Part shown: positions 2 to 63,502 of the stretch, piece after piece
Layout of the letters: every line of letters begins with the position of its first letter
How positions within the stretch are numbered: position 1 is the stretch's first letter
From: an uncultured virus (IMG/VR IMGVR_UViG_3300007963_000001)
Taxonomy: Duplodnaviria > Heunggongvirae > Uroviricota > Caudoviricetes
Reading direction: 5' to 3' (one strand)
Length of the DNA stretch: 64,000 nucleotides
Virus record (IMG/VR): IMGVR_UViG_3300007963_000001
Notes under the pieces: model-generated
The model's database searches: none
Told to the model about the DNA's origin: nothing
Seen by the model: the letters and a program-made list of their open reading frames with translations, nothing else
Program-made: the position numbers and the translations under genes

Positions 2-3000
2 GAGTGCTATTGAGTGGTCAGCAGAAGTTATTGTTGAAAGAACATCTTTTCCAATGCCTATGTTTCCTGTTGCTCCATTCAATGTTCCTGTCGTTGGTGC
101 TGAACCGTCACTATCTGTTTGAATGAGAATTGAATCTGTGAAATTGGTAGCATCGAGAAGAACATCTGTGAGTTCTCCGAGAGTGGATGCGCCACCACCC
201 CCAGCAGTAGCGAATGTGAGAGTTCCACTTCCATCGGTTTGAAGGACTTGATTAGCACTTCCATCGGCGGCTGGGAATGAGTAGGCATCGTTGAACTTGA
301 TGACTCCACTACTATCTCCTTCAATCCATTTCACATGGGCTGACCCTCCTGAGTTAGCACCCCATATCTTGAGTCGCTGACTATCAGTTGCACCTGCATT
401 AACAACATCAGACCCAATCAGAACATTCCCATAGCCGGAAGAAGTGTTCCAACCGACAGACGAACCGAGCATAACATTGCGATTACCAGTAGCCGCCCGA
501 CCAGCACTTCTGCCGATGAGTGTGTTCGCACTTCCAGTTGAACCCTTACCAGCCCAATGACCTACCGCAGTTGTGCCGTAGGATTGTGAAGCATCACCCA
601 ATGCCTCGTAGCCGATTGCAGTGACAGTGTTAGTTCCACCCACACCTCTTGCGGCGTTATATCCAACGGCGGTCATTTCAGTTCCAGTAGTCGCAGTCAT
701 ACCTGCTTGATATCCAATCAGAGTTGCGCCAGTCATGGTAGTGATTGCCGTTCCAGCATTGTAGCCAATCATGACCGTTTTATCAGCAGTCGTGAGCGCA
801 TCGCCGGAGTGGTTTCCGATTGCGATGTTGTATTCCCCGCCAGCGATTGCGCCGCCCAATGCCTCGTAGCCGATTCCGAGATTGTCTGATTCTGTGTCCG
901 GCACATACAAACTGCGATATCCGATAGCGAGATTTCGATGTCCAGTGGTCGTTGCTTTGAGAGCATCAGTTCCAACAAGTGTTGAGCGTTCTCCAGTCGT
1001 CAAAGCATATCCGGCAGAACTGCCAATTGCGACAGTATCTCTTGCAGATGTGAAATTACGAAATGCATTCGCGCCAACTGCTACATTTGAATCACCATGA
1101 TTTGTGTGGGTGCTATTTCCATAGCCAGCGAAATATCCAATCATTGTATTGCTATTTGCATCCTCAGTTTGTTGCATAGCCCAATGACCCATTACTGTGT
1201 TTGACGAACCCCCACTATCATTCTCCAATGCTCTTGCACCGACAAGAGTATTTCCTGAATTAGTGTTGGTCTTTCCAGCACTGTGTCCAATCGCAACTCC
1301 TTCGGTCTGAGTAGTCCATGATTGACCCGCATAGAATCCGACACCAACTGCGAATGAACCCGTAGTCAAATTACCTAATGCTAACCTACCGATGGCAGTG
1401 TTGTAATCACCAGTTGTGGTGCTTTGCAATGCACCAATACCAAGTGATACTGATTGTTGCGCCCCATCAACATTTGATGGCACAGTTCCTACGAACATTG
1501 AATTGTTTTCAATCAGGACATCAGACAATCCATCGAGTGATGAAGCACCACCTGATGATACAGTAGCCCAAGTATTGTCGCCTCTAAGATAGGTTGAGGA
1601 TGATGCCGTTCCTGATGCTGACAACATGGCTAAATCCACAGCACCAGCCTGAATCGTTGATGCGGCAGTTATGTTTCCTCCACCATTGAAAGCACCACTA
1701 TTCCATACCACATCTCCAGTCATGGCTATGGTTCTTCCAGTAGTCAATGTCGCCGCACTACCTGTTGTGCTTTGATTGAGTGTTGGGAAGCCCGTTGCAT
1801 TGGTGAGAACTATTGCAGAAGGTGTTCCCAAGTCAGGGGTTGTAAGTGTCGGACTCGACAGGGTTTTATTCGTCATGGTTTGTGTTCCAGTCAGAGTCGC
1901 CACAGTTGAATCAATGTTCAGTGTCACCGAACCTGATGTTCCACCACCACTCAAACCAGTTCCAGCAATTACGCCACTGATATCACCAGCAATAGTAGCC
2001 CAAGTGTTGTCACCTCTAAGATAGGTTGAGGATGATGCTGTGCCTGTTGCAGATAACATTGCTATATCGACAGCACCAGCCTGAATTGTTGAAGTGGATG
2101 TGACATTTCCTCCACCGTTGAAAGCACCTGAGTTCCAAACTACATCGCCCGTCATCGCTATGGTTCTTCCAGTGGTCAGGGTAGCCGCACTACCTGTGGT
2201 ATTCTGATTGAGTGTTGGGAAGCCAGTTGCGTTAGTGAGATTGATTGCAGAAGGTGTTCCCAAATTAGGAGTTGTCAGAGTTTTGTTTGTGAGAGTCTGA
2301 GTTCCTGTGAGAGTTGCAACTGTTGAGTCGATACTCAGTGAAACAGTTCCCGAAGTTCCCCCACCACTCAGACCAGTCGATGCGGTCACTCCAGTTATGT
2401 CGCCAGTTGTGTCATCAACCCAAGATACTGTTCCACTGCCATCGGTTTGAAGAATCTGATTTGCTGAACCATCTGCCGTAGGAAATGTGAATGCCCCATT
2501 GAATTGAACACCACTGCTTGATAGTCGTAATCTTTCAACACCACCTGTGGTTAAACCAAGCGTGTCTGCGGCTGGAAAATACATTCCTGTATTTGTGTCG
2601 GCAACTGATGTGAATGAAGCACTTCCAACTGACCCCCCTGTGTTTGTCTTGAAAGAAGATGAAGCCGTATCATACTTGTTGTAAAGCCAAGCACCACCTG
2701 TGACATTTTCAGCCAGTCCAATCATGACCTTCCCATCGGGGCGAATCCTGAATGATGAATTGCCCGAACCCGTATCACTATCAACCAAGAATCTGTGTCC
2801 TGTTCCTGTTTGAATAATTTCAACCAATGTGTCATCGCTTTCATCAGTAATAGTGACCTGTTCTGAACCAGCAGTCAAAGTTGTAGCAATGAGTCCAGTG
2901 AGTGTCGGAGTCGACAGGGTTGGAGAAGTCAGAGTTTTGTTTGTGAGAGTCTGAGTTCCTGTGAGAGTTGCTACTGTCGAATCAATACTCAAAGTTGCGC

Positions 3001-6000
3001 TACCGGAAGTCGCCCCTCCACTCAGTCCAGTCGATGCTACCACTGCGGTAATGTCGCCTGAGCCTGTGCCAAATGGTAGGTTTGAAATCAATACTTTCTT
3101 TGTCGAGTTATCTGTTGAATCAACAATCGAAACATAATCCCCAGTCGCCGCTTCACTACCAAGTGCTGTGAGTTCGTGTAGGTCAAGTGCTAATGATACA
3201 GAACCCGAAGTTCCCCCGCCTGACAAACCTGTTCCAGCAGTGACTCCAGTTATGTCGCCAACTTCCATCGTAGTCCAAGAGAAAGTTCCATCCCCATCTG
3301 AGGTCAATGCTTGACCCGAACTACCATTGCCACTAACATTCAATTGAAGCGCACTGATTGAATTGTCAGCCACACCCAAAGTGACTCCACCTGATGTTCC
3401 CCCACCAGTCAGAGATTGCCCAGCAGTGACGGCTGTGATATCTCCTACATTCGTGGTGTAGCCATAGGACAGAATCTTGTCTTGGATGGCGGCAGAAGTC
3501 ATGACGGTAGTATCGTTATCTGCGAATGATTCACTACTCAATTGAACTGCGGCTGGGGCGATGTTTGAGAATGCAACAGACGACAAAGTTGCTAACGAAC
3601 CTAAGCCGAGATTGGTGCGAGCAGATGATGCTGATGTTGCACCCGTTCCACCATCTCCAATTGCAAGAGTTCCAGTGATTGATGATGCACCCAAATCAAC
3701 TGCAAGTTCTGTTGATTCGATAACCAATCCACCATTCGATTTCAGGTCAGTGCTGAATGTAGTTCCACTCAGGTCAAGACCATTACCAGCCGAGTAGGTT
3801 GTGTTGGTATCTGTGGCATTGAATGTGAGTGTCGAACCCGACAGGCTTGTTGTGACATTCGTTCCACCAGCGAAAGTGATAGTTCCTGAACTTGAGATGG
3901 CAGTTGAACCACTATCTCCAGCAAACCCAACTGAGGTCACAGTTCCAGTGGTGGATGAGAAGTTGGAATCATTGTTGAAACCTGAGAGGTTGATGTTTGC
4001 CTTTGTGAGTTTCTTTTGACCATTGGATGAATCCACGACAACAAAGAAATCTCCATCTCCATTAGATGTCGAAGTCGATAGTTCAGATAAGTCAAGAGTG
4101 ATGGTTGGATTTCCTGAAACACCACTTCCATTGGTGATGTCGATTCCGACACCTTCTGAGATAGTTCGCCCGCCGAGTAAGTTGCCGTTTGCATCTGCAA
4201 ACACAATGCCGTTGGTTGCACCCGATTGTTGGATTGCACCGACAATCAAATCGGAGTTTGCATATCCTGAATCTGTTGGGTCAACGGTAGTGGCTGAACT
4301 CAAGTCCTCAGTCGTGGTGAATAATCGGAACTTCCCAGCACTTGCATCTCTCAGAAGTCCTGAGTAGTAGGTGTTGGTGTCAACATACTTTCCAATGATT
4401 CCCAAGTCAACACTGTTGGCCGCATTGTTATCTCCAACCACCACCATCGGGTCATCGACTGTGAGAGTCTGAGTGTTGATAGTAGTAGTCGTTCCATTCA
4501 CAGTGAGGTCAGAAGAAATTACCACACTTCCACCAACAGTCAAAGTAGTTCCATCGAAAGTCAATCCTGACTCTGCATTCATTGCATCTGTTCCAGTTGC
4601 AGTCAGGATTCTGTTGTTGACTCCATTAGCCATGAAGTCAGACACATCAACACTGAATGTAGTTCCAGCCAAATCCAATCCTGAACCAGCAGAATAGGTT
4701 GTGTCCGTTGAAGCGATTGTAAGCGTGTCTGACCCTGCACTGGTAGTCAAGGACACATTGCTACCTGCGGCAACCGTGAGCGTGTCTGAATTGCTATCTG
4801 CAACGATATCTGACTGACCACTGACTGTGATGGTCTTGAAGATGTTCTGAGATGAACCCAAGTCTGTGTTTGAGAATGTAGTTCCAGCCAAACCGATTCC
4901 TGTTCCGGCGGAGTAAGTTGTGTCTGTTCCAGTAATAGTCAGAGTATCTGTTCCAGCATTTGTCGTCAGGGTGATGTTGCTACCTTCCGCAAGAGTCAAT
5001 GTATCTGCATTGGTGTCTGCTACAATATCTGATTGCCCACTCACTGAAATTGTCTTGAAGATATTTTGAGATGAACCCAAATCTGAATTGGTGAAGGTGA
5101 CTGCACCTGTCGAACCCGACACGGATATTCCTGTGCCAGCCACAGCCGAAGTCACGCCAGTATTGGAAATCGTGACTGCACCAGTTGCACCTGAAACTGA
5201 GATTCCGCTTCCAGCAACATTCGATGTGACACCTGTGTTTGCTAATGTGATAGAACCACTACTGGTGATTGGACTTCCTGAAACAGATAATCCAGTGCCA
5301 CCTGTGACACCAACACTGGTCACAGTTCCAGCAGTTCCAGCGAGGGTGATTGTATCTCCTGTTTCTGAGATTGTGATGTTGCTACCTGCGGCGAGAGTCA
5401 CCGATGAAGTTCCACTACCTGAACCACCTGCTGTCAAATCTATCTTAGCACCTGAACCGGATGTCGAACTCGATAGAGCATAGGTAGTGTCGTCATCGGT
5501 GCTTGAGATAGTAAGTTGGGTTGCTGATGTTCGTGCAATCGAAGTTGCCCCGCTACCAGTCAAAGTCACATTGTCTGTCGTTCCATCAGAACCAGTCAAT
5601 CTGAGATTGGTAGTTGCGGCTGGAACACCCAAGTCATAGGTTGTGTTTGCGTCTGTGCTATTCACATTCTGCCACTTGCTTGTGGAACTATTGTATTGCA
5701 GAGTTTGGGTGTTCTGCAAGTTCGTTAATTGCACATCTGTAAGTTCGCTAATCGCACTTGCACCCGAACCACCCTTAGTCAGAAACCAAGCGTTAGTTGC
5801 GGTCTTGTGGATATCACCACTTTCTTTGGTGTCGATGTTGGATTCGACAGATGATATTGTGACTCCTGTATCACCAGCAAAGGTCACAACACCAGCACCC
5901 AAGTTGATGAATGGGATTCGTGTTAGATTGGCTGGATATCCAACCGAAGCATTGGTTGGGATTGTGATTGTAATTGCACTTGAAGAATTGAATCTGAGAA

Positions 6001-6255: not shown

Positions 6256-6543
6256 CTATATCCCAGCATTCCAAACTTCCCATGTTTCTCCAGTGCCATG
6301 TGTGAACTCTAAGACGATGTGTTTTGATACAGTTGGATTCACAACGAGATTTGGTGAAACCAAGCACTCAATAAATCTCAATGGGTCATTGCAATGGTTG
6401 CCCTCGACCTTGATTATTCGACCATCAAGTTCGATAGTCCAGCGATGTTCACTTTGAATCATATTCACCAACTCCCTCATGTTCTTGTCGAACCCGACAA
6501 GTCGAATCATACCATCTCCAACATTCTCACTCCAAGATATCAT
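6256..6543 (-). CDS. Hypothetical protein (start moved to ATG 6543)
   Basis: MISWSENVGDG...; TGATG overlap with the upstream mini-ORF. Confidence 0.6.
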   Translation of the reverse strand: MISWSENVGDGMIRLVGFDKNMRELVNMIQSEHRWTIELDGRIIKVEGNHCNDPLRFIECLVSPNLVVNPTVSKHIVLEFTHGTGETWEVWNAGI

Positions 6544-6626: not shown

Positions 6627-6922
6627 CGCCAGTCCTCTGAAAAACTCTGATTGTCGAAATCTATCCTGTCGAGTTCGACAGGCATCTCAAGTCCGTGTTG
6701 GATTTTTTGAAGAATGTCCTCAATCAAAACAAGAGGATTGTAATTGCAACCAGCACCAACTCTGACTTTGCCTTGACCATCATAACCCAAGAATGAGAAA
6801 CTCCAATGGGAAGAACCAGTAGCAACCTGAATCAAATCTTCACCTGATTCATTCTGACCAATCAAACGGTGATTGTTTAGAATGTCAACAGACCATACAA
6901 TTTGGCTCACGAACATAGACAA
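6623..6922 (-). CDS. Hypothetical protein
   Basis: 99-aa ORF coupled to downstream ORFs. Confidence 0.6.
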   Translation of the reverse strand: MSMFVSQIVWSVDILNNHRLIGQNESGEDLIQVATGSSHWSFSFLGYDGQGKVRVGAGCNYNPLVLIEDILQKIQHGLEMPVELDRIDFDNQSFSEDWR

Positions 6923-6989: not shown

Positions 6990-7085
6990 GGTATCAATAG
7001 AGCCAATCTGAGCCACTCTTTGCCTTCTGAGGTCAATACCCACCACCGACTAATTCGATGGCCGCTATGCCGTTTTATTGATATC
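6990..7085. repeat. Dispersed ~90-bp inverted-repeat element, copy 1
   Basis: tatcaatagagccaatctgagcc...aggtcaatacccaccac...ttttattgatatc. Confidence 0.7.
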
Positions 7086-7586
7086 TGTATCATCAACAGG
7101 ATTTCCGTTTGCTTCAATATCCGCCTTAATCAGATTCTCAAAGACCTGTCCAGCAGATAATCCAATCTTTCTCCAAGCATGAACATAGTCCATAGAATCG
7201 GGAGAAAGCATCACAGTAATTTGCCTCTTGTTTTCTCTCGCTTTCTGAGTCACGCCAACTGCCTTCTCAGCATCAGCGAGAGTGATGTCCTTCCTGATAG
7301 AGAATGCTTTCGTGAATCTCTCATTGCCGTGATGGTTAGTTCCATTCCTTCCCAATACTTCTGTGACTATCACATCATCGTAATCTCTTGCGAGTTGGTT
7401 CATGATGTATGCAATTTGTTTGGGGGTCTTGCCTCGCATCGACACTGGCAGTTTCTCATCATCTCGGATATACCCAACAATCTCTGATGGTTTCATTGGC
7501 GAACTATGGTGTTCGCTACCATTGAAAATTGCTCTTACTATTGCTTGCCTTAGACTCTTTGTGATTCGCTTTGTCATATTACTCAA
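7065..7586 (-). CDS. Putative DNA-binding protein (winged-helix-like N-term, RHH-like C-term)
   Basis: PMKPSEIVGYIR helix pattern; C-terminal RQITVMLSPDSMDYVHAWRKIGLSAGQVFENLI resembles a ribbon-helix-helix. Confidence 0.6.
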   Translation of the reverse strand: MSNMTKRITKSLRQAIVRAIFNGSEHHSSPMKPSEIVGYIRDDEKLPVSMRGKTPKQIAYIMNQLARDYDDVIVTEVLGRNGTNHHGNERFTKAFSIRKDITLADAEKAVGVTQKARENKRQITVMLSPDSMDYVHAWRKIGLSAGQVFENLIKADIEANGNPVDDTDINKTA

Positions 7587-8781
7587 CTCCTTCTTTCTTT
7601 ACCAAATGTGGAAACTTGATTTCTCCCTGTCTGCACTGGGGGCATGGTGCAGTATCTTCTCGGTTAGTATCACCACACTTAACGATGACCTTGATATTGC
7701 ATTGTGGGCATCGGAAATAGTCGGAATAGTAGGCATAGCCACCACCAGTTTTGTCGATGATTTTGACCCCTCGATAATCCGTGTGAGATGGAATCCACGC
7801 CGAACCATCTTGCTTGATTTTTTCAGTGGTGGAAATAGTGTGAGTCATGGTTATCCTATCGGCACACAAATCGAGGAATGTGATTAGATGATTTGCTTGG
7901 TTGGGGCATTGTTTGAGCCGGAGGTTTGTAGCCCAATTGGTTGCAGTTGAGAAGATATTATCTTCCGAATCTTCGTGTGCATGGACTTGCAACGAGAAGT
8001 TAGTCGAGTCGCCAATGTGCATCAAATCATACACACCATCAGCACCGAGAATCCCTTTGAGGATGGCTTCTGCCTTAGACCAGTTGAGCCACACGAACTG
8101 ACCGAATTGCATCGTGTAATTTCCGTCATCTTCCTTAGCGATGGGCGTAATACTTCCACCCATGTTTTTCGGTTGGCGAATTGCAGATTTGTTGATGACG
8201 AAGATGGCTGGGTCGAACTTGAACTCATTAGTTGGGTCATCGCATAATTTCTCGACTACCATTCGCTTCAAATCAGAAGGCGTGTATATCCCCGTCTGCG
8301 AGGCCAATAAGTCGAACCCCATAGGCAACGCAATCATGTAGGCATTCTCCCCATCATCATGCAAAATCATGAATGCAGGGAAGGAAGCATAGCCCCCCTT
8401 CAATTTGTTGTAAAGACTTCCATCAACCACATCAGTAGTGATTTTGACATTCTCAGCCCACCTCATGTTCTCATGTGAAAAATGCGCCTGAACTTCTTTT
8501 GTGTTGTATGACTCAATGTCGGATGTTTGTCGGATTTTTTTGCTGACTGATTTCCATGTCGAAGCCGACACACACGCGGAAGGAAAACCGCACTCACTGA
8601 GATGACCGAAATCGAGATTGAATGGGTTGCCCCTTCCATCGGTCATCGCACTGGCATAATTCACCCATGAACCATTTCTGATTCTCCTGAACCGACCCTC
8701 TGACGCGGCGGGTTTTGCAGTTTGATGATGTTTCCAATCTTCAAGCCGCAACTTGATTGGTCTGATATTCCTAATGCTCAT
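7579..8781 (-). CDS. Hypothetical protein with C-terminal zinc ribbon
   Basis: 400 aa; CPQC...CPQC; GGAG upstream. Confidence 0.75.
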   Translation of the reverse strand: MSIRNIRPIKLRLEDWKHHQTAKPAASEGRFRRIRNGSWVNYASAMTDGRGNPFNLDFGHLSECGFPSACVSASTWKSVSKKIRQTSDIESYNTKEVQAHFSHENMRWAENVKITTDVVDGSLYNKLKGGYASFPAFMILHDDGENAYMIALPMGFDLLASQTGIYTPSDLKRMVVEKLCDDPTNEFKFDPAIFVINKSAIRQPKNMGGSITPIAKEDDGNYTMQFGQFVWLNWSKAEAILKGILGADGVYDLMHIGDSTNFSLQVHAHEDSEDNIFSTATNWATNLRLKQCPNQANHLITFLDLCADRITMTHTISTTEKIKQDGSAWIPSHTDYRGVKIIDKTGGGYAYYSDYFRCPQCNIKVIVKCGDTNREDTAPCPQCRQGEIKFPHLVKKEGVE

Positions 8782-11142: not shown

Positions 11143-11973
11143 TTACCACTTTCTTTTTCTGAATGGAACAGGCTCGCAGTGTAGCGTTCTTAGGGTCAGA
11201 AGGTAATCTTTGAAAATCCGAGATAACCCAGCATGATTCCATATCTCAGATTGTATCTTGATTGCAGTGATAATATCCTCGATTTCAGCATGGTTGTATT
11301 CGGCCATTTTGATGATGTTCATTGGATGGTTTTTCATCTCATTTCCAATGTATCGACCAGTCAGTATTGCTTTGGTTTCATCCAGTCCAGTTAGGTTCGG
11401 TTGTCTTGGTTCTTCTTCACATCTGAATCCCACTGGACTCGTCAGTAAGTTATTCCATGCGCTCCGCCATGAAGGAGATACTTCGGCAATGTGTCGAAGA
11501 TGGTTTTCATCAAGGCCAGTTGCCGCAGAAGTTCCCTGCAAAAATCGGAGTAGGTTTGCTGGAGATGGCCTGTCGACTTCGACACTCAAACAGTTCTTCC
11601 TGAGATGGAACGGAACGGATTTGAAATTATCAATTACAATCAGAACTGGAACTAACTCTAACTCAATGAAATCAGATACCAACTTCCATTCTCTTTTGCC
11701 CAATGATTCTGCATCATCAACAATAGCAATTTTCCTATCACCACTGAGGCTGAATGAAGTTGCCTTTGAGAACGGATTCTTCACAGTGAAATCATCAATC
11801 CATTCGGGTTCAAATCCCTGTGCTTTTGAGAAGGTGGAAGCAAGAGTTGTCTTGCCCACTCCACTATCTCCATGAATCACAACCGCACTGATTAGAGTGG
11901 GGGATTTCTCAGACCGAGATTGTAGCCATGATGAGAATGCTGAATGTTTGGATTTACTGCCAATCCAATCCAT
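11143..11973 (-). CDS. AAA+ ATPase resembling a short RFC large subunit
   Basis: HGDSGVGKTTLA Walker A, IAIVDDAESL Walker B, RSAWNNL sensor-2-like. Confidence 0.7.
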   Translation of the reverse strand: MDWIGSKSKHSAFSSWLQSRSEKSPTLISAVVIHGDSGVGKTTLASTFSKAQGFEPEWIDDFTVKNPFSKATSFSLSGDRKIAIVDDAESLGKREWKLVSDFIELELVPVLIVIDNFKSVPFHLRKNCLSVEVDRPSPANLLRFLQGTSAATGLDENHLRHIAEVSPSWRSAWNNLLTSPVGFRCEEEPRQPNLTGLDETKAILTGRYIGNEMKNHPMNIIKMAEYNHAEIEDIITAIKIQSEIWNHAGLSRIFKDYLLTLRTLHCEPVPFRKRKW

Positions 11974-11974
11974 C

Positions 11975-12342: not shown

Positions 12343-12429
12343 GGGTCTGTCGAGTTCGACACACAATAATCGGAATCCCATCCTGAAAAAAATCCTGAAA
12401 AAAATCCTGAACCCACTGGATTTCAAAAC

Positions 12430-14337: not shown

Positions 14338-16979
14338 CTGAACCACTCGTCTAATTTTGTCTGACTCATACCTGCCAATGCAGATGTCCATGATGTGTTG
14401 AATGCACCGAGAATCCCAGCCCAAGATTTTGATTTTGTGAAGTGCTTGTCGAAGGAAGATTGCCTGTCGACTTCGACACCAAATGACTCAGGGGTTTCTC
14501 CCCACTCAATCGCCACAACTCGTTTCGATGGTAGGCTTCCAGTTTCAGAGGAAGATGCAAGAAACAGAACTGGCTTATCTCCGATGTCGAACTCCGTTTT
14601 CAGATTAGAGTTCGACCACATTGCGGCAGTGTGTGCCATCGTTCCTTTCTTCTTCATTCCCATCGGCTGTCCGAAGTCGATACTTGTTGTCTTTTCCACA
14701 TCCATCAAATCGGAATGTATCTCCCTCAACAGGACATTCAATTCTGTATGATTGCAACCAGTTAGGATTGAATTGAAAACTCGGTGCTGGGCATCCTTCA
14801 CAATCTTGGGTGCAGACGACCTTCTAATCTCGACTCCCCTGAATCCATGCTTGCCACTAAAATCTCGATATGCATATCGCTTCTTCACACCCCAAGAGAA
14901 GAACCTCTCGTAGTGTGCATCGGGCTTCACAAAGAAGAACTCATTCTTCTCAACACCCATTGTTTCCTGAACGAATCTATCGTAGGATTTGTTGAGCATG
15001 ATACACAGGATATTGGCTATCGAAACCACATCGTCTTTCTCAAACTCACGCACCTGATTCTGAGCCTCGTCATGATTAGTTATCGCTACCTTACAGGAAT
15101 CAGTATCTTGCCCGATGACATGGAATCTCAACTCGATTCCATCACCAGTGATTTCTTCTGAGAACGGTTCAATACCCAAGTCAGAAAACCACAGGGAACT
15201 GGCCTCAACCAAGTCCTTATTCCACTGGTTGTGAATCCTTGCAATCTCAGTGATATCTGAACCCAATTCAGGAAGTGCTAATCTGAAAGGTCGATTCTTT
15301 GTTTTCTCAGTTTCACCTGAGCCGAGAACACCATACCAACTGTTCATACTTTCCTTCTGCACCCTCTGCTTCCGATTGAGGGTATCACCCAACTCATCAT
15401 CACCACTCTCGTAGGCTTCTCTCATGAGGCTCTGAGTTTCCTTTCTCAGAGTTGCGAGATGGCGAAGAACAGATGGCATGATTCCCTCTCTATCTCTCCT
15501 GTATATCCGACCTGCTGGAGTAGTCGTTATTGGGAATGGAAATCCATCAGGATAGTCGATTGGATTGACAAGCGTATCGGGGCTTCCATTGGTCGTGATT
15601 ATGACTGATGGATATTCCATAGAATTATCCAGTTCAAACGCATTCTGATAGACTCCAATTGGATTCTCCATTACAAATCCACCCTGCTCTATTCCACCAG
15701 TTCTTCTCTCCTTCACCACCTGAACAGAAGGCATGATGATGTTCTTCTCAAACAGGAGATGACCCATCATGTCCTCGACCAACATCATGTTGCTATTTGC
15801 TCGCTTCATGACCGAGTTGTGGAATGCAGTTTTGGTGAGATAAAATGGAACGAGATTCAATTCGTTCATGCACCTCTCAACGCAGACATTATCCCATGCG
15901 TTATAGACGGCCAACATCATTGGGTCTTTGACCATCAAATCAGTAATTCTCGTTCTCGGAACTTTGCCATAACCCAAGACTGAACCAGCCATCCATGCGA
16001 GTGAGCCTGAGCCTGTTGTAGCCGCCGCACCTTGCACCTGTTCTGCGTAGGCAATCTTACTATCGAACAGTGGTATCTTGAGAAGTGAATACAGATTCGG
16101 ATATCGGTGATGGACAGGCACACTTCCACCATACCTTCGGTTCATCTCATTCCTCATGACTCGACTTCTGTTTTTCAGATATGGAATATCGTAGCCGATG
16201 ATATGCTGTCCACCAAGCAAATCTCTGTCCAGTTCCTCAATCCTCTGCTTGAACCACCAAAGCAGAGCCGCTTCGTTGGTATCGGGGTCAAGATGAGAGA
16301 AACTCTCCACACGCACTTTGTCGGGTTCGATGGGGGGTATGGGGCTGGTATGCTCAACAATGCTCTCTAACGCCTCCTGTGACCCCAAGAATCGCCTAAC
16401 TTGGTGTTGACTGGTGGGTGCGGTAGTTCCAATCTCATGTATGCCTGTGACGCTATCCACGAATGCGATACTCACAACTCTCTCAGGTGCATTCTCTGTA
16501 TCGAGAGAATCCGCAGTTTCAATATCGAACCAAACAACATCCAATCGGAATTGAGTTGGGTCGGTCTTGCTGGATTTGATGTGGATTGGTCTGAGATTTC
16601 TGCCAGTGCTGAGTTGCTTCGTGTCGATGTCGACAACCGCAGTCCATCCGTAAATCCAACGAACCAAAGAACTCCAAGAAACATCGGCTGAATAATGTGG
16701 ATAGAAGTAGTCACGAATCTCCTTGATATCTGACGGCATCTCCACTCTGATTTCGTAAAGTGGAACACCAGTGATAGTTGTCTTATCCGACAACTTAGTT
16801 GAGGTCACAAACGATGGCAGATTCGGAATCTCACTGGGATTCTTTTCAGACCAAAATCTCGGAATACAACCCTCGACTGTGACCTTCTTTGTCGAGCCAT
16901 CCAGTGCCTTCAATCTGAGATGTGTGAGTAGCCTGTCTGATTCGTCATAACTGACATCGACTATCAGGAAGGATTGCAT
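14334..16979 (-). CDS. polB: Family B DNA polymerase
   Basis: FDIET exo I, GYDIPYL exo II, DNSMEYPS, KESMNSWYG, QDTDS, KKRY; C-terminal PIP box QTKLDEWF. Confidence 0.95.
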   Translation of the reverse strand: MQSFLIVDVSYDESDRLLTHLRLKALDGSTKKVTVEGCIPRFWSEKNPSEIPNLPSFVTSTKLSDKTTITGVPLYEIRVEMPSDIKEIRDYFYPHYSADVSWSSLVRWIYGWTAVVDIDTKQLSTGRNLRPIHIKSSKTDPTQFRLDVVWFDIETADSLDTENAPERVVSIAFVDSVTGIHEIGTTAPTSQHQVRRFLGSQEALESIVEHTSPIPPIEPDKVRVESFSHLDPDTNEAALLWWFKQRIEELDRDLLGGQHIIGYDIPYLKNRSRVMRNEMNRRYGGSVPVHHRYPNLYSLLKIPLFDSKIAYAEQVQGAAATTGSGSLAWMAGSVLGYGKVPRTRITDLMVKDPMMLAVYNAWDNVCVERCMNELNLVPFYLTKTAFHNSVMKRANSNMMLVEDMMGHLLFEKNIIMPSVQVVKERRTGGIEQGGFVMENPIGVYQNAFELDNSMEYPSVIITTNGSPDTLVNPIDYPDGFPFPITTTPAGRIYRRDREGIMPSVLRHLATLRKETQSLMREAYESGDDELGDTLNRKQRVQKESMNSWYGVLGSGETEKTKNRPFRLALPELGSDITEIARIHNQWNKDLVEASSLWFSDLGIEPFSEEITGDGIELRFHVIGQDTDSCKVAITNHDEAQNQVREFEKDDVVSIANILCIMLNKSYDRFVQETMGVEKNEFFFVKPDAHYERFFSWGVKKRYAYRDFSGKHGFRGVEIRRSSAPKIVKDAQHRVFNSILTGCNHTELNVLLREIHSDLMDVEKTTSIDFGQPMGMKKKGTMAHTAAMWSNSNLKTEFDIGDKPVLFLASSSETGSLPSKRVVAIEWGETPESFGVEVDRQSSFDKHFTKSKSWAGILGAFNTSWTSALAGMSQTKLDEWFR

Positions 16980-50094: not shown

Positions 50095-51246
50095 TGAACT
50101 AACGGATGAATCGAGGGGGATATTAACTGAATCGCCTGAATCAATTTTATTCTCAATGGATTCCAACCTGTCTAAAATGGTTGAAATTGATTTGTATTCG
50201 TCATCTTCTGTGTCAGAATACCCTACTTCTTCCGGCATATCTCCAGTATCGACATCTATTCCTTCCCACTCATCAGACTTGCCATAGACAACTGTGATGT
50301 ATTGGTCATCTTCTTCGATGCGAACTATGTGTTTCTCGGTAGCATCGAATCCGAGTTTGGAACTGTGACCATCAGCAGGTTCTTCATCGCAACAATCTCC
50401 ACCGCAGTTGCAATCATGTGTGTCGAGTCCGACACGCACAGACTTCTGAACTGAGAACAGAGCATCGGGGCTTGCTGGAACATCGACCACAGAAGTTTCG
50501 ACCCAATCAATCTCGGTGAACTTCATGTAGCAACTGTCGTCATCTGCACATTCCTTGACTGCCGCTTTTGCAATGAATCCGATTGAGAACGCTTTGAGCA
50601 TTCCCTTTCGTATCTTGCGCGTGATGTCTTTCTCGCCACCATCAATTACTGCACTTCCCATCGGCATAGAAACACCGTTGACTTCTTCCATAGTCACATC
50701 AGTCATTCGACCAATAACACCGTATGTTTTGGAGTGGTTGTATAGTATGACTGGGTTCTTGGAATACTTCTCCCAAGCAGTCATGATTGCCTTTGCTTCA
50801 ACTAACTCTCCATGCCTGTCGAGCATATCATCTCCACCGACATAAACTGCGCCACGAATCTTCACATCATCTGCATCAGATGGTTGAACTGCCTTATCGA
50901 CTTTGAAGGGTGTGATAATCCTGTAATGAATCTCAACGGGCATTGACTTTCCAGCCTTAGATTCAAATGTATTATCCTCAACTATGGTTGCATCATCAAT
51001 ATCGAAAGTCTTGGACATATCTCCTTCCTCAGAAGTGATGGTTCTTGACTGATTCGCTTTTGCATCCCCACACGCATTGTTGCACATTGAATAGGCCATT
51101 GCGATTGCTTGTTTGCTGGGTGTCTGAGGTTTCTCAGTCATGATATCGGCTATCTTTCTCTCGACACATTCCTCAAACTTCTCATCTTCCATTCTGCATG
51201 GTGGACTCTTGATTGGAGTTGCGTCATCTGATGGTTCTTTTGGCAC
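49543..51246 (-). CDS. Prohead protease fused to an acidic coiled-coil scaffold
   Basis: DRHGE, PVILYNH, FSIGF, ETSVVDVPASP. Confidence 0.92.
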   Translation of the reverse strand: MPKEPSDDATPIKSPPCRMEDEKFEECVERKIADIMTEKPQTPSKQAIAMAYSMCNNACGDAKANQSRTITSEEGDMSKTFDIDDATIVEDNTFESKAGKSMPVEIHYRIITPFKVDKAVQPSDADDVKIRGAVYVGGDDMLDRHGELVEAKAIMTAWEKYSKNPVILYNHSKTYGVIGRMTDVTMEEVNGVSMPMGSAVIDGGEKDITRKIRKGMLKAFSIGFIAKAAVKECADDDSCYMKFTEIDWVETSVVDVPASPDALFSVQKSVRVGLDTHDCNCGGDCCDEEPADGHSSKLGFDATEKHIVRIEEDDQYITVVYGKSDEWEGIDVDTGDMPEEVGYSDTEDDEYKSISTILDRLESIENKIDSGDSVNIPLDSSVSSMTSEDMDIITEDAVATEEETAVLDTPEVMEDVVEQTTEIEAVEEKTVEETEEVPMPSPREALIEVASALKTIMETLDMMQKSEVVDEEIVDDSDDELTSLKAELDALKTEKADREAEEALEAEVAKRVADKLAEVGIDSTPERKSIPVSEEKTSDVTRFDPQPHMTKGMNGLASWLESNLTSR

Positions 51247-51915: not shown

Positions 51916-54365
51916 ACCAACAGATTATCTTCTGCACCCTCAACATCCGGTCTGAGAATCTCATCATCGGGTATTGGTGCAACTGGTGATACTTCGTCTG
52001 ACGGTTCGTATGCAACAAAATCACAACGACAGTTTGGATGGGCTGGCAGAACTCCACCAGCCTTGTCAAGTCGATACACCGCATTCTCAAATGGAACACA
52101 AGTATCTTTGTCGGTCACGGTGTCAATTGTGACCAATCTTTGCACTTGTTTGAATCCAACTTTCTTCATTCCTGAAAGATGTGCATTCACAACAACCCTG
52201 CGTGTTTCAGTTCGTGCAATTCTATCGTAGTAGTAGCGAGGGAATGCCTTGCCAGTTGGGTCGATTCGATATCTCATGTTCCTTGATACCCATTGCCAAT
52301 TTTGGTTCTCAGCAATTGCCTGTTGGAATACGGTCATTACCTCTTTTCTGTATGCCCCAAGTGTATTCCTCAACGCCGGAACTCTCCATTGAGCATTCCA
52401 ATATCTCATTGCTTCTGCATCTTGCAAATCAAACGATATTCCAACGCCTGTCGCCGCCGCCATCGCCGCTAATGTGCTGTCGAATCCGACAGTCAAAGAT
52501 GTGGAAGCGGCAACGGTTTGTTTGTCGAGAAGTTCCTGTAATTCTCTATCGAGTAAATCAACCATCCAAACCAACTCATCTCCACCAACTGCTTTGGTGA
52601 TTTTTCCATCCATAGAACCTGTCGGCCTCGACACATCTCCAAGTGAATACTCAAACACATCGTTGGGGTTGATTCGCTCAGAGATTCTTTCGATTAGCCT
52701 GTCAGAGAACTCTTGTTGATTTTGGAAAAACTTCTTCTCAGTTTCTCTTGTTGTTGACCTCTCAATTCTGTCGTATTGAGTTTGGCTCGCATCAGTTATT
52801 TTTTTTTTCATCTCTTGAAGTTCTTCCACCGAGTAAGTGACCTCAGATTCAGGCTCACTAAACTTCGGCATTTCCAATTCCTCGTCATCGTCATGGTCAT
52901 CCATCGGATTCGGGAATAATTCATCCAAACCTATCGTGTCGGAATCGACATCATCTTCTGTGTCATGTGGTTGATTGATTGAGAGTTTTGGACTGATGAA
53001 GAATGGGTCGTTTGCATCTGCTTCCTGAATTAGTGGGAAGCCCAAGATTTCTCTTGCTTCGTTGATTGAAATTGCACCCTCTTGTCTGAGTGTTGCAAGT
53101 GCCTGAGCCTGAGCCTTGAGAGTTTCTGCTCGCTCTGTTTCTCTCGATGGTCTGATACTGATGAACTTGAACTTCCAATCAGTAATTCCGAGCAATGGAA
53201 GAATGCGATTATTCATCATTGAGGATAGTCTTGAATGATATGATTCGATAACATCATACCAAGCATCCAATTGTTGCTCAGGATTTGCTAACTTACCTGT
53301 CTGAACCCATCCTAATTTCATTGGTGGGATTCCGAATACCGCACAGATTTCTTCTCGGTAGTAATAGAGTAAATCGAGTTGCGCCCCCTCTCTCGTTGAG
53401 TCAATCAATCGGTGCATATTGAATCCAGTTCCACCGTTTATTGCAATCAGTCCAAATGGTGATTTTCCGCCTGAGAGTTGTTGCTCGATAAGACCCAACA
53501 TTGACTTCATTTCACTGTTGGAAATATCACCAACATTCAGGATGGTTTTGGGCAGAGTTCCAGTGTAAAGCATATTGAGATAATTAGACAGATTCAACTG
53601 CCCTGCAATAATCTCCATGAGAGGAATCAACGGACTTGAACCGTAGCCCCTTCCTTGTCTAAACTTGGAGATGTGAATTACCTTGTTTGCATCGAACTTT
53701 CTTGTGTTCTTGTCAATGGTCTGAACATACGCCATCTTAGGGGGCTTCGGAGTCTGATTTGCTGGAACGAGTTTCATGGATTCTGCTGGTATAGTCCAAA
53801 TTGCTTGAAGGTCGCCACCATATACCCAATCTTCACCATTTACAGACGATTTGTCGGCACTTCCATCGAGTTCCAAGTAGGCATCCCCAAAGAGGATTAA
53901 ATCGAACAGAAGCGACTCCAGCCACTCATCACCCATATCATCAGGATTGGGTCGTTGAAAGAACTCACGAATCTTATCCAATTGCTCTTGGCTTCCATCC
54001 TCTTTTCCTTCTGCAAGAATGAAATGATATCCATTCGCCAATGTGTCATCAACACACCTACGAAGAATTGCATTGACCACCTCTGATTTCAGTGAAATCT
54101 GCCTGAGAAGATTGTATGAAACTTGGGTGTCTGCACCCGTCTTAGATTGCCTACCAACAGTGGTCGCCATTCCTATCTTTGATAGTGATGCTAATGTCTT
54201 TCCATCCCATACCATATCTTGCCCATTTACATCGGCCTTCCCATTGATTAAATCAGACAATTTCTGAGCATCAGATGGGTCGGCTCGCCTTCTCAAAAGA
54301 CGGTCAAGAAAACTGCGCTGACGCTCTGCCATGCTCAGTCGTGTTGCTTTCCGGTTTTTCACCAT
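51912..54365 (-). CDS. Portal protein fused to a MuF/SPP1 gp7-like domain
   Basis: GYGSSPL, EICAVFGIPP, SINEARE; C-terminal RIARTET, PAHPNCRC. Confidence 0.92.
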   Translation of the reverse strand: MVKNRKATRLSMAERQRSFLDRLLRRRADPSDAQKLSDLINGKADVNGQDMVWDGKTLASLSKIGMATTVGRQSKTGADTQVSYNLLRQISLKSEVVNAILRRCVDDTLANGYHFILAEGKEDGSQEQLDKIREFFQRPNPDDMGDEWLESLLFDLILFGDAYLELDGSADKSSVNGEDWVYGGDLQAIWTIPAESMKLVPANQTPKPPKMAYVQTIDKNTRKFDANKVIHISKFRQGRGYGSSPLIPLMEIIAGQLNLSNYLNMLYTGTLPKTILNVGDISNSEMKSMLGLIEQQLSGGKSPFGLIAINGGTGFNMHRLIDSTREGAQLDLLYYYREEICAVFGIPPMKLGWVQTGKLANPEQQLDAWYDVIESYHSRLSSMMNNRILPLLGITDWKFKFISIRPSRETERAETLKAQAQALATLRQEGAISINEAREILGFPLIQEADANDPFFISPKLSINQPHDTEDDVDSDTIGLDELFPNPMDDHDDDEELEMPKFSEPESEVTYSVEELQEMKKKITDASQTQYDRIERSTTRETEKKFFQNQQEFSDRLIERISERINPNDVFEYSLGDVSRPTGSMDGKITKAVGGDELVWMVDLLDRELQELLDKQTVAASTSLTVGFDSTLAAMAAATGVGISFDLQDAEAMRYWNAQWRVPALRNTLGAYRKEVMTVFQQAIAENQNWQWVSRNMRYRIDPTGKAFPRYYYDRIARTETRRVVVNAHLSGMKKVGFKQVQRLVTIDTVTDKDTCVPFENAVYRLDKAGGVLPAHPNCRCDFVAYEPSDEVSPVAPIPDDEILRPDVEGAEDNLLV

Positions 54366-55608: not shown

Positions 55609-55944
55609 TTATGCCGTGTCGGTTTCGACAGGTGCTTGGTCTGCTTCTGCAAGTCTTGCAATTAACTCAGCCTTAGTTCCTGATGTTGGTAGCCCCTTCG
55701 CTTTGCAAAGTTCAACTAACTCCGCCTTCTTCTTGGCTTCCATCCCATCAACAACATCTTCAACTGCGTCTGCAACATCGTCTATTTTCGACTCGCTCTC
55801 TGTCAAAGTATCAATGACTTCATCAAGACTGATTTTACCATCAGCCATGATGGTCTTGTATTTCTTCAATCCCCAAACTACGAGTCCGAGTATAGCGGCC
55901 AAAGCCACAATCCAAAGTTCCATTTCAACGCCCATTATTTCCAT
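55609..55944 (-). CDS. Membrane-anchored SAP-domain protein
   Basis: N-terminal TM; KKAELVELCKAKGLPTSGTKAELIARL. Confidence 0.8.
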   Translation of the reverse strand: MEIMGVEMELWIVALAAILGLVVWGLKKYKTIMADGKISLDEVIDTLTESESKIDDVADAVEDVVDGMEAKKKAELVELCKAKGLPTSGTKAELIARLAEADQAPVETDTA

Positions 55945-58065: not shown

Positions 58066-58145
58066 GTTTTCAAATCTCAATCGAAAACAAATCCAAATCC
58101 AAATCCAAAACTATCCAATGTTCCGTGTCGGATTCGACAGATGCA

Positions 58146-58799: not shown

Positions 58800-60323
58800 G
58801 TGTCCGTGAGCGATGCTCTGAGTGTTAGATTAACGGCGGCACAGGCAAGAGAGATTGCAATATATCCCGATAGGTGGGCGCAGTATTTTCGCACCATCAA
58901 TGGGAAGCCATTCAGCCTCCATTTGCGACCATACCTGATTGAGATTTACAGGCACTTCCAACCCAGCAAAAAATCGGGCAAAACCAAGATGATTATTCTC
59001 AAGTGTAGTAGGAAGGTTGAGAAAACTGAAACCATCTGTAATTTGCTCATGTATGGACTCCTGAACATACCATACTTCAACGCAGTCTATACTGCCCCAA
59101 GACAACCGCAGGTGAGTAGGTTTGTCGATGAGAGATTCAATGGTGCGCTGATGTCCAGCATCAATGGTGGATGCCTCATGAAACCGAGAGTCAAGACCTC
59201 CGTGAGTCATCAGACATTCAATGTCGGCGCGAGGTCGCTGAACCACCTGTATGCTTACTCAAATTGGGGAGATGCACATGGTCTGTTAGGTATCGAAGCC
59301 GACATGGTGTGTATTGACGAATATCAGGATTCGGGCGCAGATGTTCTGCCCATGCTTGTCGAGATGTTGGCACTATCAGAATACAAGTGGGTTCTCGTCA
59401 GTGGAACGGCGAGAGAACAGGGTTCTGACTTTTGGAAACTTTGGGAGAAATCCAGCAAGGGAGAATGGACTGGAAATGAGTGGGTTCATGGAGATTCTGA
59501 TGATGACATAATTGGATATCACATCAGTCAGAAAATGCACCCTGAGATTACGGATGAAGATATCCAAATGAAGAAGGCAACTTACACACCTCGCAGATAT
59601 GCAAACGAAGTTCTTGGAGAGTTCTTTGCTGGTTCGACAAAACCTCTGACTTTCGATGAGGCATTACGGGCTGTCGACACCGACAGGAAGATTCTGAGAT
59701 TTGTGGAAGCACCGGAAGAAACTGTGATGGGTGTTGATTGGGGGAATCAAACCACAGTTGTCATCATGAGGAAAAACGGGGAGATAGTGAATTGCCTCAA
59801 GTTGGATTCAAGAGCCGATTTTGAAAATGATGAAGTTGAGGAAATCAAGAATCTGATTGAGAGATACAATTGTGTCCAAGTCGTCTGTGATATCGGGTAT
59901 GGGGCAAGACAGGTCAAAGAACTCCAAAGGCAATATGGAGAGATGGTCAAATCTTGCTATTATTCCAGCCGACCATTGACTCCATTCCAATACAAAAAAA
60001 GAGATAACAATAGGAATCTGATTTACATGGCTGTTGTCGACAGAACATCCTACATTGAATCAACCATCGAGGCAATCAAAAATGAGGAAATATCCCTTCC
60101 ATACAAAACGACAGATTTGGAATGGGTTTTGCATGAATGGACATCTTTGAACTCATCATCAGAACAGGATGAACAGAACATGAGGCCAATTCATTCTCAG
60201 AGCAAGACAAAGTTCGGCAGAGATGGTGATGACCACGCTTTCCATGCTTTGCTCTATGCGAGGTTGGCTATTGGATTCGATGAAGATAGTGGATTGCCCC
60301 AAATTGGGGTGTTTGGCGACTAA
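58800..60323 (+). CDS. terL: Terminase large subunit
   Basis: KCSRKVEKTE Walker A variant, CIDEYQD Walker B, SGT, MGVDWG, DIGYG, DDHAFHA. Confidence 0.92.
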   Translation: MSVSDALSVRLTAAQAREIAIYPDRWAQYFRTINGKPFSLHLRPYLIEIYRHFQPSKKSGKTKMIILKCSRKVEKTETICNLLMYGLLNIPYFNAVYTAPRQPQVSRFVDERFNGALMSSINGGCLMKPRVKTSVSHQTFNVGARSLNHLYAYSNWGDAHGLLGIEADMVCIDEYQDSGADVLPMLVEMLALSEYKWVLVSGTAREQGSDFWKLWEKSSKGEWTGNEWVHGDSDDDIIGYHISQKMHPEITDEDIQMKKATYTPRRYANEVLGEFFAGSTKPLTFDEALRAVDTDRKILRFVEAPEETVMGVDWGNQTTVVIMRKNGEIVNCLKLDSRADFENDEVEEIKNLIERYNCVQVVCDIGYGARQVKELQRQYGEMVKSCYYSSRPLTPFQYKKRDNNRNLIYMAVVDRTSYIESTIEAIKNEEISLPYKTTDLEWVLHEWTSLNSSSEQDEQNMRPIHSQSKTKFGRDGDDHAFHALLYARLAIGFDEDSGLPQIGVFGD

Positions 60324-60420: not shown

Positions 60421-60641
60421 AATGGCCTTAAATCGGAAAATTGGGCTTCTGACACAGTTCGGCTGGGGATTCTGAGGTAGGAATGGTCAGAATGGGCGTT
60501 TTTTGATTGAATCTAACTGCGTCTGTTGTGATAGTGAAATTATGTCACCAGTGACAAAATCTGCTGGGGTCACAAAAACGACCTGTCGAGTTCGACACAG
60601 AGCAAATCGAAATCGACACGGTTTTTCAGAGAAAAAAAATC

Positions 60642-62930: not shown

Positions 62931-63502
62931 TCCTTCCCTGATATTCCCACCGTTATGAAGGAATAGGTTTCTGAGTAATTTCCATCATTGAATAATTTGC
63001 AACATTTGGTGCAAGCAGATTCAGAACCCAAACGCCGTTTTCGATACACCACCTGATTGCAATTTCGACATTTGTATTTCAGAAGTCGCCCTGCTCGATA
63101 TTCATGTTGCTGAATCTTCTTCACGAACCTCTTTCGATGAGTCAGATATTCCTCATATCTCCACCAGTCTTTTTCGACATCTCGGAACTCTCCACGATGA
63201 CCAACTTCTGCGCCCAAAGACAGGTGCAACAATTCATGATGCAATAGACCCTTGAGAAGCAAAGGATGAGCATAGTCAAAGGCGAGTTTGTGAATGGATA
63301 GAGTTGGTGGATTGAAGGACACCGATGCGAGTGTTCTCACTGTTCCTTTCTTGAGGTATCGAAGGCGAAGCCACTTCGTTCCATGAGGCAACCCACCGAA
63401 GATATCGTTTCTTTCGATTCGGAGTTCTCGATAAACTTCCCGAAGTCGAATCAAATCCTCAACAGAAATTGGATTGGTAAGTGTCGAACTCGACATCATC
63501 AT
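62927..63502 (-). CDS. SprT-like zinc metalloprotease
   Basis: LLHHELLHL...GHRGEF, YKCRNC...CTKC. Confidence 0.85.
   Translation of the reverse strand: MMMSSSTLTNPISVEDLIRLREVYRELRIERNDIFGGLPHGTKWLRLRYLKKGTVRTLASVSFNPPTLSIHKLAFDYAHPLLLKGLLHHELLHLSLGAEVGHRGEFRDVEKDWWRYEEYLTHRKRFVKKIQQHEYRAGRLLKYKCRNCNQVVYRKRRLGSESACTKCCKLFNDGNYSETYSFITVGISGKD

Follow-up and report, generated by a model that had tools for sequence, protein, structure and literature searches.

In the Cluster A mycobacteriophages (e.g., L5), tens of short sites known as stoperators, about one per 2 kb, are bound by one phage protein, the gp71-type repressor. Stoperators are asymmetric and oriented with transcription, their reader is a monomeric helix-turn-helix repressor of a temperate phage, and stoperator and repressor specificities co-diverge between related phages. 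The ParB-parS, KorB-OB and archaeal AspA systems employ palindromic sites that sometimes lie in genes; a dimer nucleates larger assemblies on them, and specificities diversify between competing replicons. DNA uptake sequences (DUS) and uptake signal sequences (USS) are non-palindromic words that mark cellular chromosomes for uptake by the competence machinery. The closest published case to the one described here is the 17-bp dyad repeat TGTTCGG-N3-CCGAACA of the Cluster O mycobacteriophages, for which, in the passages cited, binder and function are given as unknown and a promoter role is judged unlikely by the authors (Cresawn et al. 2015, PMC4351075). The present analysis concerns a palindrome, TGTCG-N4-CGACA, that is repeated throughout a 64-kb stretch of DNA, hereafter the window, from the uncultured virus IMGVR_UViG_3300007963_000001, which by its gene content is a magrovirus-like archaeal tailed virus.

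The window contains 37 exact copies of the palindrome (about one per 1,700 bases), dispersed from 1847 to 63495 and not arranged in tandem, with a maximum gap of 5.5 kb (Table 1). All 35 positions given in a preliminary description of this DNA were correct, and two additional copies were found. Dinucleotide shuffles yielded a mean of 0.11 copies (maximum 1), and Markov models of order 3 and order 5 gave 0.15 and 0.32 copies, respectively. After 300 synonymous-codon shuffles within open reading frames (ORFs), a mean of 5.2 copies (maximum 9) was left; this shuffle cannot touch intergenic DNA, and four of the approximately five residual copies are the intergenic sites. Any spacer length from 0 to 12 other than N4 gave at most one copy, and the equal enrichment at other spacers that would point to the pentamer alone was not observed. 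The half-sites by themselves occur 153 and 127 times in the window, and the next unrelated inverted repeat of 5-Nk-5 form, all such repeats being compared, has four copies. The earlier observation is confirmed and proves stronger than had been stated.

The extended form TGTCGR-NN-YCGACA fits 36 of the 37 sites (the one at 46539 is the sole exception), with spacer ends A..T, A..C or G..T and never G..C. When up to one mismatch is allowed, 55 copies are found against 1.98 expected, including all five of the near-copies noted previously (4067, 5462, 20105, 27721 and 30902). Eleven of the 18 one-mismatch copies carry transitions at half-site position 2 (G-to-A) or 4 (C-to-T) and keep the R..Y spacer. 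Outside the motif only a weak C/G preference is seen and conservation ends about 1-2 bases out; because the flanks are unconserved beyond this distance, the motif is no repetitive extragenic palindrome (REP) or miniature inverted-repeat transposable element (MITE), i.e., no mobile palindromic element. The conserved flanks, extragenic location and insertion-like distribution of such elements are absent, the sites lying in frame in genes and at orthologous codons. Another palindrome, CCATATGG, is not enriched in the window (16 matches with up to one mismatch against 23 expected).

Relatives were gathered from IMG/VR as 23 loci through the polymerase, and 59 and 39 more were obtained through two candidate DNA-binding proteins (ORFs 7065-7586 and 23219-23590); 13 whole relative records were scanned. 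The 5-N4-5 design recurs in them in the dialects TGTTG, TATYG, TACTG, ATGTTC and TACCG, with the N4 spacer in every dialect and between 8 and 40 copies in a record. The window's own word is present in L007 and L051, which share 97% identity in family-B polymerase (PolB). Record G001 (64.9 kb, 84% PolB identity, 37% G+C) contains 34 copies of TGTTG-N4-CAACA, none with C. The word TATYG-N4-CRATA occurs with C and T mixed in G004 (81.7 kb, complete, with terminal repeats; 40 copies) and G015 (38 copies), and in a CTATTG-type form in G003 (22 copies, 19 of them as CTATT-N6-AATAG). ATGTTC-CACA/TGTG-GAACAT is found in 27 copies in G011 (80.6 kb, complete), TACTG-N4-CAGTA in eight copies in G012 (35.8 kb) and (T)ACCG-N4-CGGT(A) in nine copies in L166 (21 kb). 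Weaker, lower-density TATYG sites that do not follow the R..Y rule were detected in G006-G010 (13, 16, 8, 8 and 5 copies; reversed control 1, 0, 0, 2 and 0, respectively). The complete record G013 (82.8 kb) has no genome-wide palindrome (0 copies).

The two half-sites change in concert between lineages, and the dialects occupy orthologous positions. When the window was compared with G001 by blastn, 24 of the 37 sites aligned and 15 of these 24 were TGTTG-N4-CAACA in G001; protein-guided mapping gave 12 of 24 retained. The sites in the PolB (16622), MCM-like helicase (28552) and large terminase (TerL, 59672) genes are represented at the same codons, in the local dialect, in relatives of about 55-60% PolB identity. 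The dialect switch is non-silent, GAC (Asp) being replaced by AAC (Asn) in 10 retained phase-2 sites and TCG (Ser) by TTG (Leu) in one retained phase-1 site. In a relative with 86% DNA identity, 98.8% of the fixed bases (79/80) and 81% of the spacer bases are the same as in the window, and seven of eight sites are kept versus 1.8 expected.

In a crude gene set, 33 of the 37 sites lie within ORFs and four are intergenic; Pfam-supported calls place 20774 in the ERCC4 gene and make the assignment of 30441 doubtful. Nineteen sites are in codon phase 2, 12 in phase 1 and two in phase 0, with the encoded peptides V-[EDG]-x-D in phase 2 and S-x-[SP]-T in phase 1; no single peptide explains the motif. 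The gaps between sites are evener than under random placement (coefficient of variation about 0.96) in the window (0.73, P 0.04), G001 (0.60, P 0.001) and G004 (0.62, P 0.001). The position of sites along genes is uniform in the window (Kolmogorov-Smirnov (KS) p=0.89), and G001 and G004 show a mild 3'-half skew; the pooled 116 sites give KS p=0.02.

An archaeal metagenome-assembled genome (MAG), G016 (1.4 Mb), contains contigs of a related virus. Three virus-type contigs (C43, C146 and C42) carry 36 of its 46 copies of ACCG-N4-CGGT, and the other 10 lie in the approximately 1.3 Mb outside virus contigs; the reversed control gives 34. The order of this MAG was taken as the presumed host order because G016 contains viral contigs and magroviruses are linked to Marine Group II. 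Across 121 genomes of this order, counts of the window's word range from 0 to 20 per 1.2-2.2 Mb, and in the genome with 20 copies these are scattered and are without R..Y. A function on the host chromosome is unlikely because of the low count in G016 outside the viral contigs, and on the evidence of these genomes the motif is not a host-chromosome feature. The sites are under selection acting on double-stranded DNA, because they are enriched beyond coding, recur as orthologous dialect sites, have conserved fixed bases, are evenly spaced and are specific to the virus.

Table 1. Positions of the palindromes and of the candidate binder gene in the window. Dialect sites are those of relatives at the corresponding position.
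Feature	Position	Location	Counterpart or remark
Exact site TGTCGGACTCGACA	1847..1860	Tail-fibre-like ORF 2-6211(-)
Exact site	2903..2916	Tail-fibre-like ORF
Exact site	3830..3843	Tail-fibre-like ORF	Absent from the preliminary description
Exact site	4138..4151	Tail-fibre-like ORF	Absent from the preliminary description
Exact site	5108..5121	Tail-fibre-like ORF
Exact site	6486..6499	Small-ORF region 6256-6922	Gene call uncertain
Exact site	6667..6680	Small-ORF region	TGTTG site in G001
Exact site	8557..8570	400-aa zinc-ribbon ORF 7579-8781(-)
Exact site	11571..11584	AAA-like ORF 11143-11973(-)	TGTTG site in G001
Exact site	12348..12361	Intergenic	TGTTG site in G001
Exact site	14465..14478	PolB gene	TGTTG site in G001, Asp to Asn
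Exact site	16622..16635	PolB gene	Dialect site, same codons, in G001, G003, G004, G007, G010
Exact site	18173..18186	ORF 18147-18422(-)	TGTTG site in G001 (protein-guided mapping)
Exact site	19621..19634	Kinase-like ORF 19484-19972(-)	Lost from L007 and from X6 and X9 strain contigs
Exact site	20774..20787	ERCC4-HhH nuclease ORF 20052-20996(-)	TGTTG site in G001
Exact site	21309..21322	Primase (AEP) gene	TGTTG site in G001
Exact site	23237..23250	3' end of ORF 23219-23590(-)
Exact site	23807..23820	PD-(D/E)XK nuclease gene	TATCG site, same codons, in G004
Exact site	28552..28565	MCM-like helicase gene (667 aa)	Dialect site, same codons, in G001, G003, G004, G010
Exact site	30441..30454	Doubtful small ORF or intergenic	Adjoins strain-variable junction
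Exact site	33995..34008	ORF 33486-34595(-)	TGTTG site in G001
Exact site	34283..34296	ORF 33486-34595(-)
Exact site	36319..36332	1580-aa PKD-domain tail ORF	TGTTG site in G001
Exact site	38054..38067	1580-aa tail ORF
Exact site	43583..43596	Glycosyltransferase gene	TGTTG site in G001
Exact site	44658..44671	Start of glycosyltransferase gene
Exact site	46309..46322	SNase-like ORF 46228-46608(-)
Exact site	46539..46552	SNase-like ORF	Only site with C..T spacer ends
Exact site	50421..50434	Prohead protease gene	TGTTG site in G001 (blastn)
Exact site	52478..52491	Portal gene
Exact site	52620..52633	Portal gene	TGTTG site in G001
Exact site	52937..52950	Portal gene
Exact site	55617..55630	3' end of SAP-domain ORF 55609-55944(-)	TGTTG site in G001 (blastn)
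Exact site	58126..58139	Intergenic
Exact site	59672..59685	Large terminase gene (+)	Dialect site, same codons, in G001, G003, G004
Exact site	60584..60597	Intergenic
Exact site	63482..63495	Start of ORF 62927-63502(-)
Variant site TGTCG/TATCG, R..Y spacer	4067..4080
Variant site TGTCG/TATCG	5462..5475
Variant site TGTTG/TGTCG	5836..5849
Variant site TGTCG/TATCG	20105..20118
Variant site TATCG/TGTCG	25758..25771
Variant site TGTTG/TGTCG	27721..27734
Variant site TGTCG/TATCG	30902..30915
Variant site TATCG/TGTCG	41098..41111
Variant site TGTCG/TGTTG	41203..41216
Variant site TATCG/TGTCG	47571..47584
Variant site TATCG/TGTCG	59291..59304
Candidate binder gene	7065..7586	Minus strand	170-173 aa; putative N-terminal winged helix and C-terminal ribbon-helix-helix-like dimerisation domain

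The Cluster O repeat and the palindrome of the window both have invariant inverted arms around a variable centre and many dispersed copies (34 in the approximately 70-kb genome of Corndog, 37 in the window); the former is absent from the host genome (PMC4351075), and the latter is lacking as a feature of genomes of the presumed host order (0-20 copies per 1.2-2.2 Mb). In Corndog, 14 of the 34 copies lie between genes and 10 more near gene starts, whereas about 33 of the 37 copies in the window are inside genes, with codons overridden; moreover, the host of the window virus is archaeal, unlike that of Cluster O, and dialects at orthologous positions and evener-than-random spacing are features not described in the cited passages on Cluster O (PMC4351075).

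Stoperators are likewise present as tens of genome-wide copies of one short site; unlike them, the sites of the window are two-fold symmetric and their central bases occur in both orientations. No lysogeny gene was recognised in the window, itself a partial genome, and no integrase-type Pfam match was found among its 61 proteins or among 52 of the 89 listed ORFs of G004. As in the ParB-parS, KorB-OB and AspA systems, the sites are palindromic and may lie inside genes, a dimer being predicted here for a single candidate. In contrast to ParB systems, at least 37 sites are present rather than one to about a dozen, and the candidate binder is composed of a predicted winged helix plus a ribbon-helix-helix (RHH)-like domain. 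No ParB/ParBc or KorB match was obtained among the 61 window proteins or 52 further G004 proteins, nor any ParA or SMC-type gene in the window (Pfam). With DUS and USS the palindrome has in common a short self-identifying word at about one per 1-2 kb, evenly spread, imposed on coding sequence and differing in dialect between lineages. It differs from DUS/USS and Chi in being its own reverse complement rather than a one-strand asymmetric word, and from DUS/USS also in that the tag is on the virus and missing from the genomes of the presumed host order. The likenesses to stoperators, parS/OB and DUS are functional analogies, and the defining features of these systems are mostly lacking. No publication describing a genome-wide palindrome for magroviruses was found, and term searches of the main texts of PMC5434244, PMC11706807 and PMC10160649 gave no mention of such a palindrome, motif or inverted repeat.

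From these properties we infer, at about an even chance, that the palindromes are selected cis-acting docking sites on double-stranded DNA for a virus-encoded, two-fold symmetric (dimeric) DNA-binding protein. The earlier suggestion of binding sites for a dimeric protein gains indirect support from half-sites that co-change, strict spacing, overridden codons, even spread and absence from the genomes of the presumed host order. Under this explanation, each magrovirus lineage would keep its own dialect of one 5-N4-5 design, with sites and reader co-evolving, and sites kept every 1.7-2 kb or so along the whole chromosome would tag viral, not host, DNA over its full length. The two winged-helix domains of a dimer of the 7065-7586 protein would read the outer TGTCG half-sites, and its RHH-like domain would hold the two copies together and perhaps also recognise the central R..Y. 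If docking occurs, the likeliest step, at about even odds, is that bound dimers are points of nucleation or roadblocks by which the viral chromosome is organised, shielded or silenced, in a mode like that of the stoperator-repressor or ParB/AspA-type systems; private dialects would then prevent cross-talk between competing viruses.

A bolder and rather doubtful extension is that about 40 evenly spaced palindromes, private to a lineage, constitute an identity code, maintained at an amino-acid cost and read by a fast-evolving winged-helix/RHH dimer that discriminates self from host and competitor. Such a code would serve silencing, shielding from the virus's own nucleases, replication or packaging, with dialect switches playing a part akin to that of incompatibility or heteroimmunity groups. 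The surface ocean's most abundant archaeal viruses would then possess a viral equivalent of DUS dialects or of parS incompatibility. Magroviruses infect one of the most abundant surface-ocean archaeal groups and are not culturable; for this reason, cis-acting signals that can be read from sequence are one of few handles on them. The palindrome offers a clear example of a signal in DNA that takes precedence over protein coding and co-evolves with lineage, together with a testable pairing of a site with a 170-aa candidate reader. The dialect may also be used as a simple sequence marker that sorts magrovirus contigs into lineages, possibly interference groups, and the link to the unexplained Cluster O palindromes suggests a general, unnamed way of marking chromosomes among tailed viruses.

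The best candidate for the reader of the proposed docking sites is the 7065-7586 protein, an assignment that is tentative and stands at less than an even chance. The protein had already been named as a possible binder, which its winged helix, RHH-like domain and predicted homodimer make plausible; the link to the sites is circumstantial, and the presence of the RHH-like domain tracks the R..Y constraint. Its AF2 model (pLDDT 86.8) has an H-H-H-wing arrangement followed by a beta-alpha-alpha domain with two C-terminal helices. A homodimer was predicted with ipSAE 0.62 versus 0.00 for the best control; of proteins solved as pairs of one chain, 20 of 30 attain this mark, compared with one of 23 solved as single chains. 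The homodimer runs had at least 66% of contacts in common and a partner pLDDT of at least 76, with the interface at residues 116-163; in the predicted dimer, the 119-124 strands of both copies are antiparallel, as in RHH dimers. Spacer ends are R..Y in most copies of records whose protein has the RHH-like domain (window 49/53, G001 35/35, G004 36/43, G003 21/24, G012 8/8, G010 4/5), and in fewer where the domain is missing (G006 6/13, G008 2/8, G009 3/8, G011 0/27). The protein diverges fast (99, 74-77, 41-45, 34 and 28% identity across lineages). It has no Pfam or PHROG match, and a search for cellular relatives in 185,579 species genomes gave 42 pattern matches, none of which was confirmed.

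Several observations weigh against the docking of such a dimer. Motif and gene do not go together in the complete relative G013, which has a 7065-7586 homologue (148 aa, with the RHH-like part) and no palindrome, so that presence of the protein does not predict the motif; G013 also has a homologue of 23219-23590. Conversely, G011 has 27 sites though its 7065-7586 homologue is without the RHH-like domain. Because the lineages share descent, correlations between residue and dialect, such as Tyr versus Phe/His in the putative recognition helix, are confounded, and between the window and G001 this helix is no more diverged than the remaining protein. Foldseek searches against the PDB gave weak, generic winged-helix matches (E at least 0.02). 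In addition, the window is part of a genome, related complete records being about 81 kb, and the host-order assignment, which rests on one MAG with viral contigs, is presumed only.

The second candidate named in the preliminary description, 23219-23590, was rejected as the determinant of specificity, its putative recognition helix being identical across viruses of five dialects (helix region QPFEIHRLTNHLAKKPHLF in TGTCG, TGTTG, TACTG, TATTG and TGTTC viruses). This highly conserved winged-helix-like protein of 110-125 aa has a basic N-terminal VPSSKYGxR motif, and its gene always follows that of a Cas4-like PD-(D/E)XK nuclease, with a 14-nt overlap in the window. The nuclease/winged-helix pair is followed by RadA-like, SSB (single-stranded DNA-binding) and MCM-like genes (window 23219-24782; orthologues L024:8085-9678, L042 and L049). 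The protein may be a partner of the nuclease.

Among the alternatives to docking of a viral dimer, it is unlikely, though less so than for the others, that the sites are replication or recombination signals for the virus's own replisome, i.e., helicase-loading or initiator sites (WhiP/Cdt1/Orc1-like winged helix), priming sites or Chi-like sites giving many even starts in a genome of about 80 kb. The virus encodes PolB, clamp loader, primase, MCM-like helicase, RadA-like ATPase, SSB and nucleases (cf. passages of PMC5434244), Pfam recognises no Orc1/Cdc6 in the window, and even spacing fits loading or priming sites; forty origins in 80 kb would, however, be without known precedent, and signals of the Chi and primase kind are either short or asymmetric, with reading on one strand, whereas the sites here are strictly two-fold symmetric. 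The candidate winged helix has weak fold matches to the Cdt1 C-terminal winged helix (3a4c, TMt 0.62) and Orc1-DNA (2v1u), but PadR and MarR regulators are likewise among these non-significant matches. Conservation reaches deepest for the sites in PolB, the helicase gene and TerL, which may merely reflect conserved peptides, V-[VI]-[DE]-x-D, that fit the motif.

That the reader is a host-encoded nucleoid-associated, defence or repair factor, with dialects corresponding to different host species, is improbable. The G+C content of the dialect lineages ranges from 37% to 56%, which suggests different hosts, and the viral binder is still a candidate only. On the other hand, the genomes of the presumed host order contain few copies of the window's word, the viral-contig MAG has only 10 copies of its own virus's dialect outside the virus contigs, and a host protein without sites of its own would have to shift its specificity along with each virus; the host factor allowed for in the preliminary description is made less likely.

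A comparably small chance is given to the sites being targets of a DNA-modifying or DNA-cutting enzyme, such as a methyltransferase, another base modifier or a T5-like site-specific nickase. A 5-N4-5 palindrome resembles the targets of type II restriction-modification systems, and in G004 a weak match to N6/N4 methylases (E 1e-4, short of the curated cut-off) was obtained for the gene beside the candidate binder. Half-site position 4 can be either C or T in the TATYG lineages, and the difference between the window and G001 is CpG to TpG, an interchange that would fit a reader of the 5-methyl group. The window has no methylase or restriction-type domain (Pfam), though, and restriction targets are normally depleted in viral genomes, whereas these sites are more than 100-fold enriched and positionally conserved; both-strand cuts at the palindrome would also fragment the genome.

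RNA or single-stranded DNA hairpins with a 5-bp stem and 4-nt loop, on long co-directional transcripts or replication intermediates, are very improbable. Most genes are on one strand and the arms co-change between lineages, by which pairing would be preserved too, but a 5-bp stem is marginal and the stem sequence is more strongly conserved within a genome than pairing alone would require, which points to base-specific reading. In addition, sites with mixed T and C halves are read on the sense strand as U.G type in 40 cases and as C.A type in 30; the mRNA hairpin was rejected because this split is near even and follows codon phase. The preliminary description considered protein coding an unlikely explanation. 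That the sites arose secondarily from coding or composition, through a recurrent peptide, codon bias or repeats, can practically be dismissed despite look-alikes in relatives and the peptide in common among phase-2 sites, as synonymous shuffles remove the signal, different peptides, three codon phases and intergenic DNA are involved, the copies are dispersed and not tandem, and amino acids change to match the dialect.

The two look-alikes were considered as dialects and rejected. GGWCC-N4-GGWCC (L082, L089, L092, L093, L096, G003, G013 and G014) and CCGG-N5-CCGG (G011) derive from 9-bp-periodic collagen-like Gly-Pro-X coding repeats that cluster in fibre genes. With 46-73 and 92 copies, respectively, such repeats may be taken for a genome-wide signal in motif scans; they lie at 3928-6100 in G013 (L154-L158), at 235-2264 and 78613-80687 in G014, and in G011 (L149-L153). 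A palindrome of another kind, (A)TATAA-N8-TTATA(T), occurs 12 times in G013 (L154-L158), clustered near 75-80 kb (1689, 14818, 43848, 46169, 48163, 75202, 78646-79795 and 82479). A 55,503-bp magrovirus-like contig (L041-L043 (G007), identical to L167) sits in a public MAG labelled as a Legionellales bacterium, an evident binning error. The methylase-like ORF of G004 is located just downstream of the candidate binder gene (L025:7266-8456), and no counterpart was seen in the window.

Pfam searches of the window identified a family-B polymerase, an RFC-type clamp loader, an ERCC4-HhH nuclease, an archaeo-eukaryotic primase, a Cas4-like PD-(D/E)XK nuclease and an XPD-like helicase, together with a MoxR-VWA pair and two SAP-domain proteins. 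Virion proteins include an HK97-type capsid protein, protease, portal, tape measure and large terminase. The gene set agrees with that of magroviruses in the passages cited from Philosof et al. 2017 (PMC5434244). Nearly all genes across 1-56.4 kb are on the minus strand. Megablast of positions 1-20000 against 50,697 phage records gave no match, and PHROGs, applied to 21 unannotated window proteins, gave nothing useful for either candidate binder. The 400-aa ORF 7579-8781, which has a C-terminal zinc ribbon and an 8-nt overlap with the beginning of the candidate binder gene, is fast-evolving (32% identity to G001 versus 84% for PolB); no family was obtained for it from Pfam, PHROGs or the ESM Atlas (in the latter, hypothetical viral clusters only, score at most 0.76).

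Twenty public sequencing-run rows contain the window or part of it, with no RNA run listed among them; these data are contigs, hence read starts, nicks and modification are invisible in them. In contigs of four runs over 11001-31000, only site 19621 is affected among the variants listed (40 of 534). A strain-variable junction is present at about 30.50-30.58 kb, where contigs of all four runs break or carry other DNA (window 30436-30600), with loose contig ends in X2, X5, X6 and X9 and 207 additional letters in X9 at 30436/30437. The junction, beside the small oppositely oriented ORFs at 30568-31612, is probably a swap point for accessory genes. The summed contig depth over 25675-26341, the acidic-tail region of the SSB-like gene, reaches 59.7 in X5 and 727 in X9 (about 5 and 16 elsewhere, respectively), which is probably caused by low-complexity Asp/Glu-coding DNA common to other organisms.

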